Below, in pieces: positions 1 through 9,758 of a stretch of 9,758 nt of DNA; positions within the stretch are counted from its first letter, which is position 1, and the number at the start of each line of letters is the position of its first letter. The stretch covers positions 1-9,758 of the IMG/VR virus record IMGVR_UViG_2663762948_000006; one strand, 5' to 3'. The notes under the pieces were generated by a model. It saw only the letters and a program-made list of their open reading frames with translations, was not told the origin of the DNA and made no database searches. A program made the translations under genes and the position numbers. This stretch comes from a virus (Duplodnaviria > Heunggongvirae > Uroviricota > Caudoviricetes).

Positions 1-219
1 TTACATCCACATAATTTGCTGCCCTGATGGCAACGGGTGCGGCCTTACGGCGTGGACTTCTCCCGGCTTCACGATGTATCGCTGTACCGACTCATAAGTG
101 ATGAACGTGGCGCTGCAATTCACGTTCTGGCACTGATGATAACGCTCTTTTGTCGTGTCAGTGATATAGCGGCTTGTACGCGCATGTGCGGCATGCTGGC
201 ATAAAGGACAATGAAACAT
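1..219 (-). CDS. ogr: Ogr late-gene transcriptional activator (zinc-finger, P2 Ogr / P4 Delta family), 72 aa
   Basis: Translation from ATG at 217-219 gives MFHCPLCQHAAHARTSRYITDTTKERYHQCQNVNC..., with the CxxC...CxxxxC zinc-finger spacing and the 72-aa length of P2 Ogr. The 93-aa ORF in the track begins at an upstream TTG (280-282) and is probably an over-extension. SD-like GGAAGAGG lies about 8 nt upstream of the ATG on the minus strand. Confidence 0.9.
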   Translation of the reverse strand: MFHCPLCQHAAHARTSRYITDTTKERYHQCQNVNCSATFITYESVQRYIVKPGEVHAVRPHPLPSGQQIMWM

Positions 220-253
220 CGCGAGCACCTCTTCCGGTTTTGTTGATGGTGCC

Positions 254-282
254 ATTTTAGTTAATTTATCCTTACAAAACAA
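254..282 (-). promoter_or_regulatory. Putative sigma70 promoter for ogr (-35 TTGTTT, 17-bp spacer, -10 TAAAAT, read on minus strand)
   Basis: By eye: reverse complement of 277-282 is TTGTTT and of 254-259 is TAAAAT, 17 bp apart, about 35 nt upstream of the ogr ATG. No experimental support. Confidence 0.3.
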
Positions 283-300
283 ACAGATAAAACAAAAACA

Positions 301-1464
301 TCACTCATCATCTTCTGTTTCGTACTCCACATCAGAAAGCCTGACCTCAAGCTCTAAGGACGTCGTGAAGCCGCTATTATTCAGAAAATGTGTCACCTTA
401 GTGATTGTCCAGTCCTGCTCGTCTATGACGCGCTTAAAGCCAGACACTTTGACCGGTGTTTCCGTGTAAATATCTGCCCGACCGGTAGCCAGGCTGATGG
501 AGAACTCCGCAACGCCCCGTTGCAGTTTATCCCACTTCGCCTGAGCGGCGCGCATGGCCTGCGCTTTCGTGGCATATACCGTGGTCAGGGCAAAAACGTT
601 GTCAGCCTCACCGGCCATGTATTCACCTTCACGCGCTTCCGGTACTTTAGGCGCTTTCTTCTGCCTGACCGGTTTCGCTTTCGGGTGCTCCAGTGCGCGC
701 AGGTGTTTCTCTTTCTTTTTGCGTTTCAGTTTTACCTTCTGCTTTTGCGGCTTCGGGTCTTTAGTGTGTAGCCATTTTGCCGTTACACCGGTGTAGGCTC
801 CACGGTCAGCAATCGCAAAATGATGGCGGTCGCCGTCGCTGCGGGTTATGGTGACCTGCGGGATTTTTTTACCGCTGGCCGTCACTCCCTGCCCCGCTTT
901 GAGAAACAACAGTTTTCCCATTTTTACCGACACCTCACCGCCGTTGCGTTCTGCAAGACGGGTCAGGAATTTCGCATCAGACTCCTGCGACTGGTCGATG
1001 TGTGGAATTTTTATTCCGGCCAGTGACGGAGCGACACTGGCTTCCAGCCTGTTACGGGTGGCTATCGCCTTAACAATCGCACCGAGCGTGGTGTCATGCC
1101 AGGAGCCTTCCCGGCGGGAATTGAGCGTCCCGCGAAAATCTGCACTCCGGGCGCGGATGGTGACTACATCCGGTGCGCCCCGGTGTTCAACCTCATCAAC
1201 GGTAAATTTCCCTTTGCATACCAGGGCAAAACCTTTCCAGCCGATATACACCGTCAGGACAGCGCCACGAACCGGCAGCCCGACCTGCCCGTCGGCATCG
1301 TTCAGTTCAATATCAAGCTGGTCAGCCTCAAAGCCCCGGTTATCCGTCAGGGTCATGCTCATCAGACGGTCGCTGATATTGCCGGTAATATCCCTGCTGT
1401 CGAGCATCAGCATGTAATCCGGCGTCAGCGTACTGCCTGCATCAAATGTCAGCGCATCCAGCAT
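301..1464 (-). CDS. D: P2-type tail protein gpD (late control gene D), 387 aa
   Basis: 387-aa ORF, the length of P2 gpD, lying directly upstream of ogr as in P2 (T-U-D-ogr). The start ATG (1462-1464) overlaps the stop of the upstream gene as TAATG on the minus strand. Contains a Lys-rich basic segment. Confidence 0.88.
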   Translation of the reverse strand: MLDALTFDAGSTLTPDYMLMLDSRDITGNISDRLMSMTLTDNRGFEADQLDIELNDADGQVGLPVRGAVLTVYIGWKGFALVCKGKFTVDEVEHRGAPDVVTIRARSADFRGTLNSRREGSWHDTTLGAIVKAIATRNRLEASVAPSLAGIKIPHIDQSQESDAKFLTRLAERNGGEVSVKMGKLLFLKAGQGVTASGKKIPQVTITRSDGDRHHFAIADRGAYTGVTAKWLHTKDPKPQKQKVKLKRKKKEKHLRALEHPKAKPVRQKKAPKVPEAREGEYMAGEADNVFALTTVYATKAQAMRAAQAKWDKLQRGVAEFSISLATGRADIYTETPVKVSGFKRVIDEQDWTITKVTHFLNNSGFTTSLELEVRLSDVEYETEDDE

Positions 1465-1943
1465 TATCCCGCCCCCGTCATACCTGTGAATCTGGTCGCC
1501 ATACTGCCGGCCTTACCGATGAGCGATTCCGCCTGTTTACCGATATCGCCATAAAGCGCGGCCAGTGATTCATCAACGCGGGTGAGTGACAGCGTAAAAT
1601 CAATTTTCCGGGGTGTGCCGTCTGCAAAGAAAATACTCCCTGTTTCACTCACCCTGCTGATGACATACATGCCGTAAATCATGCCGGTGCCATCCAGCAA
1701 CGGCCACGCCCGCCCCTCCTCTGCCATCAGCCTGAGCGTGGTCATCGTCAGCTTGCCGCCGGTCAGTTCGGGATAAAGCACACCGGCCAGCGTGATGTTT
1801 TCCTCACCCACACCGAGAAACTGAAAGGCATCCCGTTTACCGATACGGGAATTTGACGGCCAGCGATAATCTGATTCACGCTGCATGGTCTGGTGTGGCA
1901 GCGTCTGGCGCATAAAAACAAACATACCTAACGCGAGCATCAT
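1464..1943 (-). CDS. U: P2-type tail protein gpU, 159 aa
   Basis: 159-aa ORF, the length of P2 gpU, between the T remnant and D on the same strand; its stop overlaps the D start. Confidence 0.85.
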   Translation of the reverse strand: MMLALGMFVFMRQTLPHQTMQRESDYRWPSNSRIGKRDAFQFLGVGEENITLAGVLYPELTGGKLTMTTLRLMAEEGRAWPLLDGTGMIYGMYVISRVSETGSIFFADGTPRKIDFTLSLTRVDESLAALYGDIGKQAESLIGKAGSMATRFTGMTGAG

Positions 1944-1957
1944 TTTTCGTCACCTCC

Positions 1958-2743
1958 TTAACCGTCATGCATCATGCTGGCACGGGCGCGCACACGTTTA
2001 TCCCGCTCGTATTTTTCGAGCGCATCCTGTAACTGGCGGTCAAGCTGTGTCCCCGGCGCAGTCCCCCCCGTCAGGCTGATGTGATATTCGTTTTTACTCT
2101 GGTCTACATAAGAGCGGCCAGCCGGTGCCGTGACCGGCTGATAAGCCTGATAGCCTGCATAAGAGCTGGTCGCCGGAATATAGTCACCGGTACCATACGT
2201 GGCGGTATGAGTTCTGGCGGCGGTCTGGTCAAGTGTGTCTGACTCTTTGTTGATAACACCGAGTTTTTCCAGTACCCAGTCAATACCACTGCGCAGTTTG
2301 TTGAACGCATTAAGCGGCAGCATCAACGCGTCAGCCAGTGCCTGCCCGAACATGACGCCCGTGTCACGGCAACGGTTCAGGGTGTCCTGGGTGGCTTTGA
2401 CCGGGGCAATCAGGTTTTTAAACCACTGCCACGCGGCCTGTAACTTTTCGCCCAGCCAGTCAAAAACCGGTTTAAGTGGCGTGAACAGTTCCCCCACCGG
2501 CGCAAATGCCGCTTTCAGCCCTTCAACCACACCACCAAAGAATGCGCTGACAGGCTCCCAGTATTTACGGATAAGCAACGCACCGGCGACAATGGCAGCC
2601 ACCACGGCCACAACCGGCCAGCTAATCGCCCCGATGGCCGTCATAACGGCACTGCCAACCGTCGTGAAGATTGCCCCCATTGCGCCTGCTGCCGCGATGA
2701 TGGCATTGATGCCGGTGATACCCATTCTGGTCGGGTGAACTGT
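1958..2743 (-). pseudogene. T: Tape-measure protein gpT, 3'-terminal remnant (about 255-261 codons of roughly 815); 5' part deleted
   Basis: The ORF ends 14 nt upstream of U as in P2 (T then U). The translation has a long Ala/Gly/Ile-rich hydrophobic segment and a C-terminal region typical of tape-measure proteins. The frame is closed by an in-frame stop at 2744-2746, so only the C-terminal third is present. First ATG is at 2723-2725. Confidence 0.8.
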
Positions 2744-3615
2744 TCAACCGGGGACGCGCCAGCGCCGCCGAACGCGTGGAAATCGACGTCAGTCATAACG
2801 CCCTTGCCGGAGGTCTTCTCTGTGCGGACGGCCAGTGGCGGCAGATTGTCACCATTGAGGACGCACTGAAAGGCGGCTGCACGCTGTTCGACATTGAGCA
2901 GCTCAAACGCGAAAACAGCGCCGACGATTTTAAAAACCTGTTCATGTGTGAATTTGTTGACGACAAGGCGTCGGTATTCCCGTTCGAGGAGCTGCAACGC
3001 TGCATGGTCGACACGCTGGAAGAATGGGAAGACTATGCGCCGTTTGCCGCCAATCCGTTCGGCTCCCGCCCGGTATGGATTGGTTACGACCCGTCACACC
3101 GTGGCGACAGCGCCGGATGCGTGGTGCTGGCACCGCCGGTGGTGGCCGGTGGCAAATTCAGAATACTTGAGCGTCACCAGTGGAAAGGCATGGACTTTGC
3201 CACCCAGGCGGAATCCATCCGCAAACTCACCAAAAAATATAACGTCGAATACATCGGTATTGATGCCACCGGCCTCGGTGTCGGCGTGTTCCAGCTCGTG
3301 CGCTCGTTCTATCCCGCCGCGCGCGACATCCGCTACACACCGGAAATGAAAACCGCAATGGTGCTCAAGGCAAAAGACGTTATCCGCCGTGGCTGTCTGG
3401 AATATGACGTCAGCGCCACCGACATCACCAGCTCGTTTATGGCTATCCGCAAGACCATGACCAGCAGCGGACGCAGCGCCACCTATGAGGCCAGCCGCAG
3501 CGAGGAAGCCAGCCACGCCGACCTCGCCTGGGCGACCATGCACGCTCTGTTAAATGAGCCACTCACCGCCGGTATCAGCACCCCGCTGACATCCACCATT
3601 CTGGAGTTTTACTGA
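2719..3615 (+). pseudogene. P: Terminase large subunit gpP, 3'-terminal remnant (nuclease-domain half); 5' half deleted
   Basis: The frame is open only from 2719 (in-frame stop at 2716-2718) and its first start codon is GTG at 2776. The translation carries terminase nuclease-domain-like motifs (WIGYDPSHRGDSAG, EYIGIDATGLGVG). Its stop overlaps the Q start (TGATG at 3613-3617), matching the P-Q order of P2. P2 gpP is about 590 aa; only about 280-300 codons remain. Confidence 0.8.
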
Positions 3616-4649
3616 TGAGCAAGAAAAAAGGGAAAACACCGCAACCTGCGGCAAAAAAAATGACCGCCAGCGCCCCGAAAATGGAGGCATTCACCTTTGG
3701 CGAACCGGTGCCGGTACTCGACCGCCGTGACATTCTGGATTACGTCGAATGCATCAGTAACGGCAGATGGTATGAGCCACCGGTCAGCTTTACCGGTCTG
3801 GCAAAAAGCCTGCGTGCTGCCGTGCATCACAGCTCCCCGATTTACGTCAAACGTAATATTCTGGCTTCAACGTTTATCCCGCATCCGTGGCTTTCCCAGC
3901 AGGATTTCAGCCGCTTTGTGCTGGATTTTCTGGTGTTCGGTAATGCGTTTCTGGAAAAGCGTTACAGCACCACCGGTAAGGTCATCAGACTGGAAACCTC
4001 ACCGGCAAAATATACCCGCCGTGGCGTGGAGGAGGATGTTTACTGGTGGGTGCCGTCCTTCAACGAGCCGACAGCCTTCGCGCCCGGCTCCGTGTTTCAC
4101 CTGCTGGAGCCGGATATTAATCAGGAGCTGTACGGCCTGCCGGAATATCTCAGCGCCCTTAACTCTGCCTGGCTGAATGAGTCGGCCACGCTGTTCCGCC
4201 GCAAGTATTACGAAAACGGCGCTCATGCCGGATATATCATGTACGTCACCGATGCCGTGCAGGATCGCAACGATATCGAAATGCTTCGCGAAAACATGGT
4301 CAAGTCGAAAGGCCGCAACAACTTTAAAAATCTGTTTCTCTATGCCCCACAGGGGAAAGCCGACGGTATTAAAATTATCCCCCTCAGTGAAGTGGCAACG
4401 AAGGACGATTTTTTTAATATCAAAAAAGCCAGCGCCGCTGACCTGCTGGACGCACACCGCATCCCCTTTCAGTTGATGGGCGGCAAGCCGGAGAACGTCG
4501 GATCGCTGGGTGATATTGAAAAAGTGGCAAAGGTCTTTGTCCGCAATGAGCTTATCCCGCTACAGGACAGAATTCGGGAAATAAACGGCTGGCTCGGCCA
4601 GGAGGTCATCCGCTTTAAAAACTATTCACTGGAGACTGACAACGGCTGA
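3615..4649 (+). CDS. Q: Portal (capsid vertex) protein gpQ, 344 aa
   Basis: 344-aa ORF, the length of P2 gpQ, immediately next to cos as in P2. GGAG lies 8 nt upstream of the ATG. Translationally coupled to the P remnant. Confidence 0.9.
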   Translation: MSKKKGKTPQPAAKKMTASAPKMEAFTFGEPVPVLDRRDILDYVECISNGRWYEPPVSFTGLAKSLRAAVHHSSPIYVKRNILASTFIPHPWLSQQDFSRFVLDFLVFGNAFLEKRYSTTGKVIRLETSPAKYTRRGVEEDVYWWVPSFNEPTAFAPGSVFHLLEPDINQELYGLPEYLSALNSAWLNESATLFRRKYYENGAHAGYIMYVTDAVQDRNDIEMLRENMVKSKGRNNFKNLFLYAPQGKADGIKIIPLSEVATKDDFFNIKKASAADLLDAHRIPFQLMGGKPENVGSLGDIEKVAKVFVRNELIPLQDRIREINGWLGQEVIRFKNYSLETDNG

Positions 4650-4654
4650 ACATC

Positions 4655-4676
4655 GCCGCCTGCGGGCGGCTTTTTT
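4655..4676 (+). terminator. Rho-independent terminator downstream of Q
   Basis: GCCGCC (4655-4660), loop TGCG, GGCGGC (4665-4670), followed by TTTTTT (4671-4676), starting 6 nt after the Q stop codon. Confidence 0.55.
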
Positions 4677-4818
4677 ACACCCCGCCATCACGCCCTCACA
4701 CGCTCATCACCGCACAAAAAATCCCGCAGACACACCAACGCCTCAACGGGCAGACTAAGCGCCGTCACGACGCGCTCAGACGCTGAAAAAATAAAATCAG
4801 CACCACCGCCAGCGCGCA

Positions 4819-4837
4819 GTGCTTTCCCCGCCTCGCC
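4819..4837. other. P2/P4-type cos site (19-nt cohesive-end sequence)
   Basis: Plus strand 4819-4837 is gtgctttccccgcctcgcc, whose reverse complement GGCGAGGCGGGGAAAGCAC is the 19-nt P2 cohesive end as I recall it. The flanking sequence toward Q also matches my recollection of the P2 left end. Confidence 0.72.
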
Positions 4838-5000
4838 CGCCCGCTTCATGGAGCGCTTTTAATGCAGTTGCAATAACACATCAAAACATCGTCAATACAG
4901 GCGATTATAAACAATAAAAAACGATCGCTGCCGCATGCAAAATCATGCACTAAATGCATGTATTGAAGGGAAATTAGGAACGTGCTCGTTTGGGTCTAAA

Positions 5001-5897
5001 CTATGATTTCGACACAACTATTTTCCCCAAATCAAAACTAAATTCGACATCCCCATTTACGATATTTTCATTTGTCACATGCTCATCAAAAAGGTCACTA
5101 ACATCATACCCCGACTGAAACACTGGGCTCATGATAGCCACGTCGGTGAATGGCTCTTTTTCATGTGTTATATAATATTGACCATAAACATTTGCAGATT
5201 CATCTGCATCATTAAGACTAAGGACTGTTTTTGCTTTGACTTCAGGCATCAGAGAAAAATCAATATTATTCAACAAACACAGTAAGATGCCTGCTATTGC
5301 TCTCCTGTTATTATCAAGCGGCATCAAGTCCACCCCTGGAATCTCCTTCCGAAGCAATATTTTCAGCTCATTAAATAAAGAGTCGAACTTAATTGCGTCA
5401 GAACAATTGAGTAACGACAAAGCTTCATTAATCATTCGCCCTTCATTGGAACCAATTTCTGATGTTAACTTACAAACACCATCATTAACAATATACGATT
5501 TTTTGTTATTAAGCTTCTTCCTCGCTGTAATTACCTGCCCCCCCTTTAAGTTTAACTTCTCCTTTAAAAACTCATCACTGAACATTCTTAATTGCAGTCT
5601 GATTAATGTAGGTAAGTATTTCGGGTATTCATTTAACTCTGGTTTAACAGCATGCTTGTCGCGTCCAAATTTTAAACTTAATAACAAATGATTCCTCAGC
5701 ATGATATCCTTTATCTCGCCTTGATCTCTCCGATGATTATGGGCAACAAAACTCCCAATTTCAAAAATACACTTGGGCGCACTCGGCAACTCACGGGCCG
5801 TAACAAAAAGAACATCAATATCACTATCAGTGAAACTCCCATCCTTTAATCTTCTCAACACTCTCTCTATTCTTGAGATTGCTTTACTTTTATTCAT
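5001..5897 (-). CDS. Hypothetical protein, 298 aa; low-GC cargo gene in the P2 tin/old hotspot position; function unknown
   Basis: Long uninterrupted ORF with an ATG start (5895-5897) in a visibly AT-rich block that contrasts with the surrounding P2 backbone. Lys/Asn/Ile-rich composition. I see no Walker A, HNH, HExxH or other recognisable catalytic motif. It lies between cos and the replication gene, where P2 carries tin and old. Confidence 0.7.
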   Translation of the reverse strand: MNKSKAISRIERVLRRLKDGSFTDSDIDVLFVTARELPSAPKCIFEIGSFVAHNHRRDQGEIKDIMLRNHLLLSLKFGRDKHAVKPELNEYPKYLPTLIRLQLRMFSDEFLKEKLNLKGGQVITARKKLNNKKSYIVNDGVCKLTSEIGSNEGRMINEALSLLNCSDAIKFDSLFNELKILLRKEIPGVDLMPLDNNRRAIAGILLCLLNNIDFSLMPEVKAKTVLSLNDADESANVYGQYYITHEKEPFTDVAIMSPVFQSGYDVSDLFDEHVTNENIVNGDVEFSFDLGKIVVSKS

Positions 5898-6177
5898 GAC
5901 ATTCTTTCAACCTTAATCAATATTTAATTTAAACAAACCATTCTCATACGCCAACCATACCTGTGACACCTGACAAACCAAATAAAAACAAAGGTACAGC
6001 GGATATTGGTATGTACAGCTATATTACACATAAACTCATGTTAGTAACATAAGATCTTCTTGTGAATATTTGTAATTTATTAGTTCACCAACATTAATCT
6101 TTCCAACCGTTATAAATCCAATCATATGCTGATACTCAAATGACGGCCAACTACCACCTCGCGCTGTTCGTTGTTCC

Positions 6178-6220
6178 CTCCAGCAGCACTGGAAGCATGT
6201 TTCAGTACTGCTGGGGTTTT
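6178..6220. terminator. Stem-loop (about 12-14 bp stem, one mismatch) followed by a T-run on the plus strand; possible bidirectional terminator
   Basis: CCAGCAGCACTG (6180-6191) pairs with CAGTACTGCTGG (6203-6214) around an 11-nt loop, then GGTTTT (6215-6220). It sits immediately after the stop of orf67 (6224) on the minus strand, but the U-tract is on the plus-strand side. Confidence 0.3.
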
Positions 6221-6223
6221 CTA

Positions 6224-6427
6224 TCAACAACGTGGTAGCAGTGCAATTTTAGACTGTTCTATATCGTTAAACCGCACGTAATTATCCCGGACTATTTCGG
6301 CACACCCGACCAACTCGTCGGGCGTCAGATTTTCGTTGACCATAATCTGCTGTAGACGGTGAACAATAGCCATCAGCTTGATATTTTTAGTGTTATGTTG
6401 CGGTATCTCGCCTGGTATTCTGTGCAT
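6224..6427 (-). CDS. Hypothetical small protein, 67 aa (from ATG at 6425-6427)
   Basis: The ATG overlaps the TAA stop of the upstream DUF3850-like gene (TAATG on minus strand), suggesting translational coupling. No recognisable motif. The track ORF (6224..6439) starts at an upstream GTG. Confidence 0.35.
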   Translation of the reverse strand: MHRIPGEIPQHNTKNIKLMAIVHRLQQIMVNENLTPDELVGCAEIVRDNYVRFNDIEQSKIALLPRC

Positions 6428-6882
6428 TATCCAAGCCACCCGTTTTGCTTTGCACGCTCAATCTGTTCATCTGAATAGTTCCATGCTCCATCCGTGGCAA
6501 CCATTGCCCCGCCAGACATCCCCGTCTCTGGTTCATACATAACAGCAAGGCCGAGCTGATGCATAATTTCATGATTAATTCTGAATACCAGACCACGCTC
6601 ACTAAGTTCTTTCCAGTTCACAATCTCATATGCGCCTGTATTAAGCTGCTCAATACTTAGCAAGACATAATCTTCCAGCCAGTCTGACAGGTCAGTAACA
6701 TCTGTTATCCGGGCTTCAACCTTTCGCCCCGTATACACACCCTGCACCCATTCATGCAAAATCAACGTGTCCCCGCGCTCATAATTACGGTCATTTTTCC
6801 GAAACTCTGCGCGTTTCTTTCCTTCCAGCACAAGGTCGAAATATTTTGCGTGCAGCTTTACCTCGTGAATTTTTGCCATCAT
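6427..6882 (-). CDS. DUF3850/ASCH-like (PUA-fold) domain protein with a C-terminal HExxH motif, about 151 aa
   Basis: The N-terminal region (KIHEVKLHAKYFDLVLEGKKRAEFRKNDRNYERGDTLILHEW...YTGR) resembles the DUF3850/ASCH-like family as I recall it. The C-terminal part contains HEIMH (6559-6573), an HExxH zinc-binding-like motif. The likely start is the ATGATG at 6877-6882, which overlaps the TGA stop of A (6879-6881); the track ORF extends 11 codons further upstream into A. Confidence 0.65.
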   Translation of the reverse strand: MMAKIHEVKLHAKYFDLVLEGKKRAEFRKNDRNYERGDTLILHEWVQGVYTGRKVEARITDVTDLSDWLEDYVLLSIEQLNTGAYEIVNWKELSERGLVFRINHEIMHQLGLAVMYEPETGMSGGAMVATDGAWNYSDEQIERAKQNGWLG

Positions 6883-8729
6883 GTCCACTCCATTACTGTT
6901 GAGAATCCCGGCCACTCATCAGCGACCGGATACGTGAATTTTTTCCCGTCATAATTTACAGTCGCGCCACGCGCCAGCGCCTCAAGCTCCCATCGCTGCG
7001 GCCTGATACCGTTCTGAGCAAGGTCAACGCGGATACGGGTGATTTGCATTCGTTCCGACCGGGTCAGTCTGGCAGATGGTGCAATTTCATGCGGTTTTAA
7101 CGGGCTTCCGTTTCTTTGCTGACGGTTTGGCGTTCTCATGTCGTATTTTAATGCGCCCCTGAGCGCCCTCACGACCTCCGGTTCATTCCATTCAATAACA
7201 CCGTCATCAACCAGATTAAGCACTGCTGCGGCGTGCTCAGAAGGTGTGGGAGCCGGTAACGAAGTATCACCACCGGTGAGCTTTCCACAGTTATTGACAG
7301 GACTCCGAGGCGCGGCGATGCCGCTTTTTAAAGTCAAAGGCTCAACGACCGGAACTTTCGGCACAATGCGCCAGTCCGTCGTTCTGGTGATATGAATATG
7401 ACGCGCGCCGAGATGCGGCGCGTAAATGCCGACCACTCTCTCGACTTCTTCCTCGTACTCGTTAACGTCATCCGACGGGCTACGGGCAACCCTGACAGTC
7501 TGACAATCGCGCGGGACATTTGCCCCACCCTGCGCGCTGATATACAACGCAAAATCACCACTGTCTGCGGCAGCGCGAGCAGCCTCGACGCGTTCGTCAA
7601 ACTCATCAGCAATACTGACGCCGCGAGGCAATTTGCGTAGTTCACGGTAAGCCCCCATTGTCGGCAGTCCAACCGTTTTAAATTGCGGGATGCGCCACGT
7701 TGACGCCCATGCGGTAACAGCCGCGGCAGTATCTTTAAGCGGCTTACCGGTATCGTTATCGAGCTGACCATCCAGTGCATAGCCGTCGATATTTTTTGAA
7801 ATGTATTTCGCGATATATCCCGCAGCACCGCCCCGGTTAAGGTGCTTTGCCTGAAAACGGTTTCGCGCGGCTCCTCTTTCGTCACCATCCTCTTTGAGCG
7901 CATAGCGACGCATGATTTCGATAATCTGGTTACGCTGGCGTGGATTACAAAAAAGCATCATATGCCAGTGCGGCGTTCCGTCGTGGTGTGGCTCGACGAC
8001 ACGCAAACCGTAGACCTGTAAATCATTATCCTTGAATGCCGTGCGCATCAGGCTCCAGATGCGGCAGAGATAACGCTGCGCATCCTTTGGATTAAATGCC
8101 TCATCGTTCCAGCCGTGATTAAGCTGAACGGTTTTACTTTCGCCTTTTCTGACCTGACGAGTCGGGTGATACTTTGACGGCGCGGTCAGCGTGATAAACA
8201 TCCCCACATCACCCTCTGCGGCGGCGTAACGCTCAATACCGGCAATGGTGTTCATCAGCTCCATCCGGCGAATTTCAGGATTAGAAATACTGCCCATCAC
8301 CTTACTGATAAGGTCGATGCGCTCGCCGGTTTCCCTGTTTTCAAGGTCACACGATTTAAGAAATTCCAGATTTGCCTGGCGGCGCGCACGCACATCACGA
8401 ATGGCGTGTTTACTGGCATACATCATGAAAAGCTGCGATGAGATACGGGCGGCAAACTTTTTCAGCTCCTTGTCATTCATTCCCGGCAGGCGCGCATAGT
8501 GGTCACGCTCTGCCAGAAACAGCAACGACGCGTCGGTGTTCATTTCATGGCGCTGATTCACACGCTCAATGCGCGGCCATAAACGACGCTGAAAAGTGGA
8601 TGTGAGAAAATAAAACCCGTGCACCGGGCTTTTATTACGCCGGATGTAGTCATAGCGTGAAGTAAACAGCGAGCGCAAAAAGTAAGGCAGGCGATTTATC
8701 GTGGATAACTCTATATAAAAATTACATTT
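6879..8729 (-). pseudogene. A: Rolling-circle replication initiator gpA, 5'-truncated (about 600-616 C-terminal codons of 761 retained)
   Basis: The translation contains the paired-tyrosine motif GYIAKYISK (Y288 and Y292 of the track ORF). P2 gpA is 761 aa with active-site tyrosines that I recall as Y450 and Y454; the offset of 162 plus 599 equals 761, so the C-terminus aligns exactly. The frame is closed by a stop at 8730-8732, the first start in frame is TTG (8676-8678) with no SD, and no B, cox or C genes lie upstream. Confidence 0.8.
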
Positions 8730-8755
8730 TCACCATTTGCCACCAAGATGGTGAA
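8729..8755. promoter_or_regulatory. Nested inverted repeat immediately upstream of int (possible operator or protein-binding site)
   Basis: TTCACCA (8729-8735) and TGGTGAA (8749-8755) are 7-bp inverted arms 13 bp apart; nested inside is CACCA-AGA-TGGTG (8741-8753). It lies 23 nt upstream of the int ATG within the A'/int junction region. Function is inferred only. Confidence 0.25.
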
Positions 8756-8777
8756 TACAGCGCCGGAGGGCTTTCTT

Positions 8778-9758
8778 ATGGCAATTAAGAAGCTCGATGA
8801 TGGTCGCTATGAAGTGGACATTAGACCTCGCGGTCGCGACGGAAAACGCATCCGCAGGAAATTTGAAAGAAAAGCTGAAGCACTAGCATTTGAGCGATAC
8901 ACAATCGCCAATGCCAGTCAGAAAGAATGGGGAGGCCAGCGAGCAGACCGCCGAACTTTGACAGAATTGCTCGACATCTGGTGGAAATACCACGGGCAAA
9001 ACCACGAGCATGGGACAAAAGAGTTTAATCATCTGCTCAAAACCATCAGCGGCATAGGTGATATACCAGTGAGTCGGATGAACAAAAGGGCTTTGATGGA
9101 TTATCGCTCCATGCGACTACGTGATGGCATCAGTGCTGCAACGATAAACCGCGACATGTACCGATTATCCGGCATGTTCACAAAATTAATTCAATTGGAT
9201 GAATTTTCCGGGCAACACCCAATTCACGGACTGCCGCCACTGACGGAGGCTAACCCTGAAATGACGTTCCTGGAAAAAGCAGAAATCGAAAAACTGCTAA
9301 ATGTTTTGACTGGTGATGACTTACTTGTCGCGCTTTTATGTCTGAGCACTGGAGGAAGGTGGACGGAAGTTGCCACGCTAAAACCAGCACAGATTACAAG
9401 TTGCAGGGTTACCTTCCTGAAAACCAAAAACGGTAAAAAGCGAACAGTGCCGATTTCTGAGGAACTGGAGAAAAAAGTTAAAGAGGAGGCCAGCGCCAAA
9501 TTGTTCAAGGTAGATTATGAGAAGTTTTGCGGGATTTTACGCAGAGTGAAACCTGATATACCTCCCAATCAGGCAACCCACATTCTGCGGCATACATTCG
9601 CAAGCCATTTCATGATGAATGGGGGCAACATAATTGCACTGCAACAGATTCTGGGGCATGCGAGCATTCAGCAGACAATGACCTATGCGCACCTTGCGCC
9701 TGACTACCTGCAGAACGCCGTCGCTCTGAATCCACTAAAAGGCGGAGTGACGTTATAA
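8778..9758 (+). CDS. int: Tyrosine recombinase, P2-type integrase (326 aa from ATG 8778; alternative start ATG 8748 gives 336 aa)
   Basis: N-terminus MAIKKLDDGRYEVDIRP... matches my recollection of P2-family Int. The C-terminal catalytic region carries the tyrosine-recombinase signature (HILRHTFASHFMMNGG...LGHASIQQTMTYAHL). GGAGGG lies 8 nt upstream of ATG 8778; the upstream ATG at 8748 has no SD. Confidence 0.9.
   Translation: MAIKKLDDGRYEVDIRPRGRDGKRIRRKFERKAEALAFERYTIANASQKEWGGQRADRRTLTELLDIWWKYHGQNHEHGTKEFNHLLKTISGIGDIPVSRMNKRALMDYRSMRLRDGISAATINRDMYRLSGMFTKLIQLDEFSGQHPIHGLPPLTEANPEMTFLEKAEIEKLLNVLTGDDLLVALLCLSTGGRWTEVATLKPAQITSCRVTFLKTKNGKKRTVPISEELEKKVKEEASAKLFKVDYEKFCGILRRVKPDIPPNQATHILRHTFASHFMMNGGNIIALQQILGHASIQQTMTYAHLAPDYLQNAVALNPLKGGVTL

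Follow-up and report, generated by a model that had tools for sequence, protein, structure and literature searches.

How does an integrase gene of the P2 type come to lie directly beside a gene A that lacks its 5′ end, and does the short stretch between the two genes carry a regulatory function of its own? The question is raised by a DNA stretch of 9,758 nt (the window; all positions refer to it unless another record is named). The original prediction, made from the letters alone, placed a deletion junction at 8679-8777, with the immunity region (C, cox) and B missing, and proposed that the remaining ~100 nt may act as a new divergent promoter region. In P2 the gene order is int-C-cox-B-A, as assumed in that prediction and as annotated in NC_001895. 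In P2, C and the integrase are both expressed from the Pc operon, and excision depends on Cox (PMC3936717).

The ORF map together with similarity searches identifies the window as a heavily deleted P2-like prophage that extends from the ogr stop codon (position 1) to the int stop codon (9758; Table 1). The colinear P2 genes ogr, D, U, T, P, Q, A and int place it among the P2-like prophages (Peduovirus) with a WPhi-type integration module. These genes are 96-99.9% identical to P2-like phages and prophages (blastn) and give Pfam matches to GPA, portal, terminase and integrase. All 9,758 nt are 100% identical to contig LIVB01000020.1 of the Escherichia coli draft assembly GCA_001419895.1. On this contig, cpxP (185 nt past int), cpxR and cpxA come after int, the cpx-side flank shares 99.8% identity with E. 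coli chromosomes, and an att core repeat (GATAAAAAAAACCCCCACATCATGTGGGGGAAGACAGGGATGGTGTC), as in the remnant L001 (see below), adjoins int. The element is thus integrated at cpxP-fieF with the att core beside int; cpxP-fieF is the known integration site of the WPhi-type prophage Wphi1 (PMC3032704). On its ogr side the contig breaks off in IS150, immediately past ogr, and att is seen at the int side. The element is also a mosaic: ogr and D (window 1-1255) are 99.84% identical to canonical P2, and the cargo is 99.87% identical to L004, the prophage used below as main reference. Rfam and tRNA scans of the window gave no matches.

Table 1. Features of the 9,758-nt window, with strand and the basis of each assignment
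Feature	Position	Strand	Basis or remark
ogr, D, U	1-1943	-	ORF map and similarity
T, C-terminal piece	1958-2725	-	ORF map and similarity
Terminase P, C-terminal piece	2776-3615	+	ORF map and similarity
Portal Q	3615-4649	+	ORF map and similarity
AT-rich cargo segment	4650-6430		Includes 298-aa ORF at 5001-5897 (-)
cos	4819-4866		Retained in the element
orf67	6224-6439	-	ORF map
DUF3850	6427-6915	-	ORF map
A′	6879-8708	-	BLASTP against full-length A of L004; Pfam Phage_GPA
Putative position homologous to the P2 ori nick site	7306	-	Coordinate transfer from NC_001895 via blastn
Joint of in-frame 297-nt deletion within A	8417-8420		blastn against L001-L004 and P2
Joint of 2.6-kb deletion	8702-8708		Alignment of 15 relatives; blastn
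Ancestral C-int spacer, 69 nt	8709-8777	+	Alignment of relatives
Inverted repeat/hairpin, TTCACCAT N11 ATGGTGAA	8729-8755	+	Repeat search; RNA fold; kept in relatives
Shine-Dalgarno GGAGG of int	8765-8769	+	Read from sequence
int, 326 aa	8778-9758	+	Pfam Int_N and Phage_integrase

The breakpoint was mapped with L004, an intact prophage of E. coli GPEC1035 at the same site and with the same cargo genes, as the main reference. The flanks were aligned at base level for 15 loci overall (A flank in 14 relatives, C-int flank in 14). By blastn, window 2719-8420 corresponds to L004 3001-8702, window 8417-8708 to L004 8996-9287 inside A, and window 8702-9758 to L004 11888-12944, which comprises the last 7 nt of C, the spacer and int. 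Missing relative to L004 are positions 9288-11894, that is 2,607 nt. With a slash marking the joint, the A side reads ...CGTGGATAA/AACACC, the C side ...ATTGGCTAA/CTCTATATAAA and the window ...CGTGGATAA/CTCTATATAAA. Alignment to the P2 reference places the A-side break at nt 28193 of NC_001895, which is nucleotide 160 of A. The deletion removed A codons 1-53, four small ORFs (two of them DUF5405, the others a TraR-type zinc-finger and DUF2732), B, cox, the switch with its face-to-face promoters Pe and Pc, and the entire C. Consistent with this, the window yielded no homologue (best E-value 0.055) in tblastn searches with C, Cox, Orf78, B and Orf80-83 taken from L004 and from canonical P2. The proposed junction between int and a 5′-truncated A, and the absence of C, cox and B, are therefore borne out. 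As regards the extent of the damage, the loss of the switch was rightly called, but the prediction left uncounted the four small ORFs and a 99-codon deletion inside A.

The joint itself is a short direct repeat, TGGATAA in A (codons 52-54) versus TGGCTAA at the end of C, with perfect microhomology over TAA at 8706-8708; this triplet serves as the stop of C and reads, on the opposite strand, as codon Leu54 of A. At a random joint the chance of at least 3 nt of perfect microhomology is ~0.05. The overlaps at the other two joints of the element are 4 nt (internal A) and 2 nt (T/P). Taken alone, the 3-nt overlap is marginally above chance; together with the 4-nt and 2-nt overlaps, the pattern is typical of short-homology deletion. 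At the level of sequence comparison, 8702-8708 is a homology-mapped breakpoint, a real deletion scar rather than a chance pattern.

Two specific agents were considered for this joint and rejected. An Int-mediated event would involve the att core GATAAAAAAAACCCCCACATCATGTGGGGGAAGACAGGGATGGTGTC, which is unlike TGGATAA/CTCTATATAAA. As for an insertion sequence, ISEc12 interrupts A in M217-type prophages near window ~7880, neither at 8417 nor at 8702.

What is left of A has been hit twice. BLASTP against the A protein of L004 shows that A′ keeps residues 54-150 and 249-761 of a 761-aa protein, with 98-99% identity in the two blocks. The second lesion is an in-frame deletion of 297 nt (99 codons, residues ~150-248) with a 4-nt microhomology, CATA, at 8417-8420. 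The 297 nt skipped in the window are present in every relative compared, and a 31-mer across this joint occurs, among the fetched loci, in the window and its source contig only. In full-length A the Pfam domain Phage_GPA spans residues 133-462 (profile positions 1-321), while A′ matches profile positions 107-321 only; positions 1-106, a third of the domain, are gone. On the other side of the 8702-8708 joint the A frame continues for seven spacer-derived codons, without an ATG, up to the minus-strand TGA at 8732-8730, where the frame had been predicted to close. The first candidate starts of A′ (TTG 8678, GTG 8624 and ATG 8543) have no ribosome-binding site, and A′ has neither its native start codon nor its promoter. 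In the source genome a 611-aa "replication endonuclease" has nevertheless been annotated; it starts at an ATA codon (8714-8712) in the spacer beside the joint. A′ is a pseudogene on three counts, and this annotation accordingly denotes a pseudogene. A terminator-like hairpin followed by a T-run (AAAGCCCGGTGCACGGGTTTTATTTT) is found at 8612-8632 on the minus strand, within the A coding sequence toward its 5′ end.

The A frame could be short by nature, and we considered whether a truncated-looking A is simply the full-length form in this lineage. The relatives encode A proteins of 755-765 aa, and a short A is thus not natural to this lineage. By the same logic, the element could be a native mini-P2 or satellite-like architecture in which int naturally lies beside a short A; its retention of int, cos, the ori position, the portal gene and ogr is what such an element might be expected to show. 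This reading is scarcely credible given the lack of a start codon and the partly missing catalytic domain of A′, and given that the A′ product is recorded on the source contig alone. Moreover, the identical int has C, cox and B upstream, with C and cox between int and A, and cpxP downstream in 10/10 places among the matches listed. The same holds for C and cox between int and A in all listed loci with the same cargo, the source contig excepted. The Pfam search of the eight larger ORFs likewise gave no primase, sid, psu or delta-type domain of a P4-like phage satellite, and the satellite-type features present are cos and ogr only.

We next turn to the short stretch between the genes. The features that prompted the promoter proposal are there: GC content is 40% for 8679-8777 and 22% for 8709-8735, compared with 51% for the whole window, the 22%-GC tract contains the TATA-like TATATAAAAAT, and a perfect 8-nt inverted repeat is present at 8729-8736 / 8748-8755, which would form a 10-bp stem as RNA. 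Their origin is a different matter. The spacer 8709-8777 is identical in 9 of the 14 relatives that carry the C-int flank and differs by one or two bases in the other five. Since it matches intact relatives, the TATA-like tract and the inverted repeat are older than the deletion. In those relatives the spacer sits within the Pc operon, downstream of C, and the A side of the joint is plain A coding sequence. The regulatory-looking features in the raw sequence are thus those of an inherited spacer. The hairpin at 8729-8755, which includes the alternative int ATG at 8748, lacks a U-run and is in this respect unlike a terminator. For 8709-8800 the RNA fold z-score is -2.3. A second predicted RNA stem (8764-8799), native to all relatives, pairs the Shine-Dalgarno/AUG region of int (GGGCUUUCUU...AAGAAGCUC); judged from this fold, it may exert translational control of int.

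Could the joint nevertheless have created a promoter region that drives int and, divergently, the A′-DUF3850-orf67 unit? Apart from the low GC content and TATATAAAAAT of the tract, the antisense strand of A upstream could by chance supply a -35-like element. However, a sigma-70 consensus scan of both strands of 8300-9000, whose reach ends short of weak and non-sigma-70 promoters, found 0 sites with 0.8 expected, and 8679-8777 contains no -35/-10 hexamer pair with 16-18 nt spacing; the best plus-strand combination found by eye has ~7/12 matches. Further arguments against it are that the AT-rich tract, like the inverted repeat, is ancestral sequence from inside the operon, left unchanged, and that no start codon with a ribosome-binding site lies near the 5′ end of A′. 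Farther away, the only plus-strand promoter candidates in 4600-9758 are at 5896-5924 and 6539-6567, and terminator-like hairpins (7099-7112 and 7312-7324) stand between them and int. The new divergent promoter is without support, and we regard it as quite unlikely; weak activity is possible as far as the sequence goes.

The int gene, in contrast to A′, is undamaged. Both start codons that had been suggested, 8748 and 8778, are in-frame ATGs. Only 8778 is preceded by a Shine-Dalgarno sequence (GGAGG, 8 nt upstream), and the RefSeq annotation of relatives uses this start. The product is an intact tyrosine integrase of the WPhi/P37 type, and the gene keeps its ribosome-binding site and its native 69-nt leader. 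At the DNA level int is 94.5% identical to that of WPhi and 99.7-99.9% identical to P37 and the prophages L006-L012, and 7,343 blocks of the collection list the identical protein. Compared with P2 int, identity is just 72-81% over short stretches.

The junction is known from one short-read draft assembly, and this has to be weighed. Reads from a P2-like prophage, or from several, could have been joined into a chimeric contig: the contig ends in IS150 after ogr, and E. coli strains often harbour a pair of similar P2-like prophages, which makes assembly difficult (PMC3032704). However, the joints share 2-7 nt, far less than any assembler k-mer, so that a graph mis-join cannot make them. In addition, three joints lie in one colinear contig with the correct host flank genes, and the A frame is open across two of them. 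An assembly artefact is therefore very improbable.

The scar appears to be private to one strain. A 39-mer and a 24-mer (ATTTATCGTGGATAACTCTATATA) across the joint gave 0 matches in species-representative genomes and metagenome contigs, and among 5,426 complete E. coli genomes none matches a 211-nt query over the joint without a break. Among L001-L026, all three junction k-mers are confined to the window and its source. Exact-protein look-ups with A′ from the TTG 8678, ATG 8543 and ATG 8480 starts and with the T′ fusion ORF found none. A near-identical intact parent, sought in order to date the deletion, was not found, the best relatives being 97-99.9% identical depending on the segment.

The site cpxP-fieF nonetheless holds other remnants, each with its own lesions. 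L001 has a T/P deletion with the int-C-cox-B-A region intact; the L005 type (NZ_CP032237.1 and 7 other complete genomes) retains ogrK, at least ~100 nt of 5′ A, the 3′ half of C and an intact int; in L015 A is deleted; L021 carries several different deletions; and the M217 type is a prophage riddled with IS150, ISEc12 and ISEc22. These remnants are independent and match the picture expected from stepwise prophage decay, a framework set out earlier (PMC6379469; PMC3448106). The L005 type is another case in which int survived extreme erosion.

Several details of these loci deserve mention in their own right. The P-side end of the T/P joint (TACCC/GTTCTGG; window 2719-2720, L001 6041-6107) is identical to the base in the L001-type remnant, which keeps an additional 384 nt of T and differs from the window by ~3%. 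The same P-side end lies at most 7 nt from the end of an IS21-family element that abuts a truncated P in APEC E956 (L030 ~7001). This coincidence of ends may reflect a shared origin or an IS-related hot spot. At the opposite edge, the source contig (L023 13921-13999) stops 77 nt into IS150. This IS sits in the ogr terminator, at the point where the M217-type prophages L027 and L028 also carry it, yet from window base 28 onward the phage DNA beside IS150 is ~2.6% divergent. Finally, the chromosome records of L003 and L030 begin at the first base of prophage A ("replication endonuclease"), and in NZ_CP076305.1 and NZ_CP076527.1 the A match stops at 160 in record coordinates, just where it does in L003. 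Apparently, an assembly-rotation tool mistook prophage A for the chromosomal start gene.

The 2.6-kb deletion is not the only lesion. T is joined directly to P at 2719-2720, with the entire P-to-T structural block gone, and together with the internal A deletion, the 2.6-kb deletion and the IS150 next to ogr, the element bears at least four lesions. A complete P2-like prophage, according to Nilsson et al. 2011, has the structural genes, a transcriptional switch that is complete, the integrase, and attL and attR (PMC3448106). Here, the switch region (C, Pc/Pe, cox) lies within the 2.6-kb deletion, and capsid, lysis, baseplate and fibre genes are absent. By its lack of cox, the element belongs with the cryptic or "grounded" prophages, those that have lost their excision function while in the chromosome. 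Coordinate transfer (P2 nt 29892) suggests that the homologue of the ori nick site, at ~7306, remains inside A′.

Between cos and A, the cargo segment has a GC content of 41%. DUF3850, which like orf67 comes after A in the early operon, is represented in P2 by Orf91, which has a stop/start overlap with the preceding A in the NC_001895 annotation. For the 298-aa cargo protein, neither Pfam nor PADLOC gave a match; 236 blocks of the collection list the identical protein, with P2-like prophages at three att sites among the matches listed. P2 carries old and tin at the locus that matches the cargo segment. From this analogy of position one might guess at an anti-phage role for the 298-aa protein.

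Does the survival of cargo and int mean that the element has been kept for a purpose? In an adaptive "grounding" or domestication, loss of the lytic and replication switch would have been selected while the cargo (the 298-aa protein, DUF3850 and orf67) and int were kept. The reading frames of 4651-6878 are indeed open and this DNA is 99.87% identical to intact prophages, int does not differ from a very common functional allele and is kept in several independent remnants at cpxP-fieF, and the concept has been described for E. coli prophages (PMC6379469). However, neutral decay, too, would be expected to leave genes at the edges in place, no function is recognised for the cargo proteins, and P2 prophages are non-inducible by UV (PMC1904263), so that any benefit of losing the switch would be small. 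The junction, moreover, is found on one contig only, with no sign of spread or recurrence. Adaptive grounding is conceivable, but a single occurrence lends it no support, and we consider it unlikely.

Collectively, the locus very probably records a strain-private illegitimate deletion in a cryptic P2-like prophage, one of several lesions that amount to ordinary erosion. We envisage a spontaneous short-homology deletion in an integrated P2-like prophage with a WPhi-type integration module, in which the TGGATAA of A and the TGGCTAA at the end of C, ~2.6 kb apart, would have been joined and everything between them removed. The short direct repeat would fit RecA-independent illegitimate recombination, whether by replication slippage or by microhomology end-joining. 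That int has lost its native upstream context, as had been proposed, agrees with the expression of C and integrase from the P2 Pc operon (PMC3936717): because Pc drives both genes and was removed with the deletion, int is stripped of its promoter. Going by P2 biology, int, cut off from Pc, would be at most weakly transcribed, and loss of Pe would leave A′, DUF3850 and orf67 unexpressed unless internal promoters serve them. Without C the element would confer no immunity. Without Cox, the directionality factor, it would not excise and would be locked in place as a "grounded" cryptic prophage, with cos and the ori position remaining and the replication initiator gone.

A more far-reaching idea is that the orphan but intact int is under fortuitous constitutive transcription from the A-antisense/joint sequence and that, from within a locked cargo island, its product acts in trans on incoming WPhi-type phages or on cpxP-fieF. 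If true, the orphan Int could alter the lysogenisation or excision of a superinfecting relative, and selection for it would explain the intact int in several independent cpxP-fieF remnants. We give this idea little chance. On the erosion reading preferred here, the locus provides a nucleotide-level record of a P2-like prophage losing its genetic switch in one step and, together with the other cpxP-fieF remnants, a small but clean example of how short-homology deletion erodes prophages; beyond annotation it matters little.

How does the element compare with known systems? Its closest counterparts are the WPhi/Wphi1-type prophages at cpxP-fieF (E. coli W; L004, L006-L014), with which it shares the attachment site, the integrase type, the C-int spacer and, outside the deletions, the gene order. 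These prophages are complete, with C, cox, B, an A of 755-765 aa and the structural genes, whereas the window is without ~2.6 kb, 297 nt in A and the P-to-T block. Cryptic P2 remnants have been described before, namely the "ogr-D′" of K-12 at cyaR and P2*B in strain B (PMC3032704). These, and the L001, L005 and L021 types, are likewise internal-deletion leftovers in an attachment site with int and/or ogr at the edges. They differ in their breakpoints: L001 keeps int-C-cox-B-A intact and L005 half of C. In "grounded" prophages a function needed for excision is lost, and deletions and IS insertions then accumulate step by step (Ramisetty and Sudhakari 2019, PMC6379469). There, grounding is mainly a matter of att or recombinase mutations, whereas in the window the recombinase is intact, and Cox and the int promoter have been lost. 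The joint between int and A is a new instance of a well-known kind, a strain-private deletion scar.
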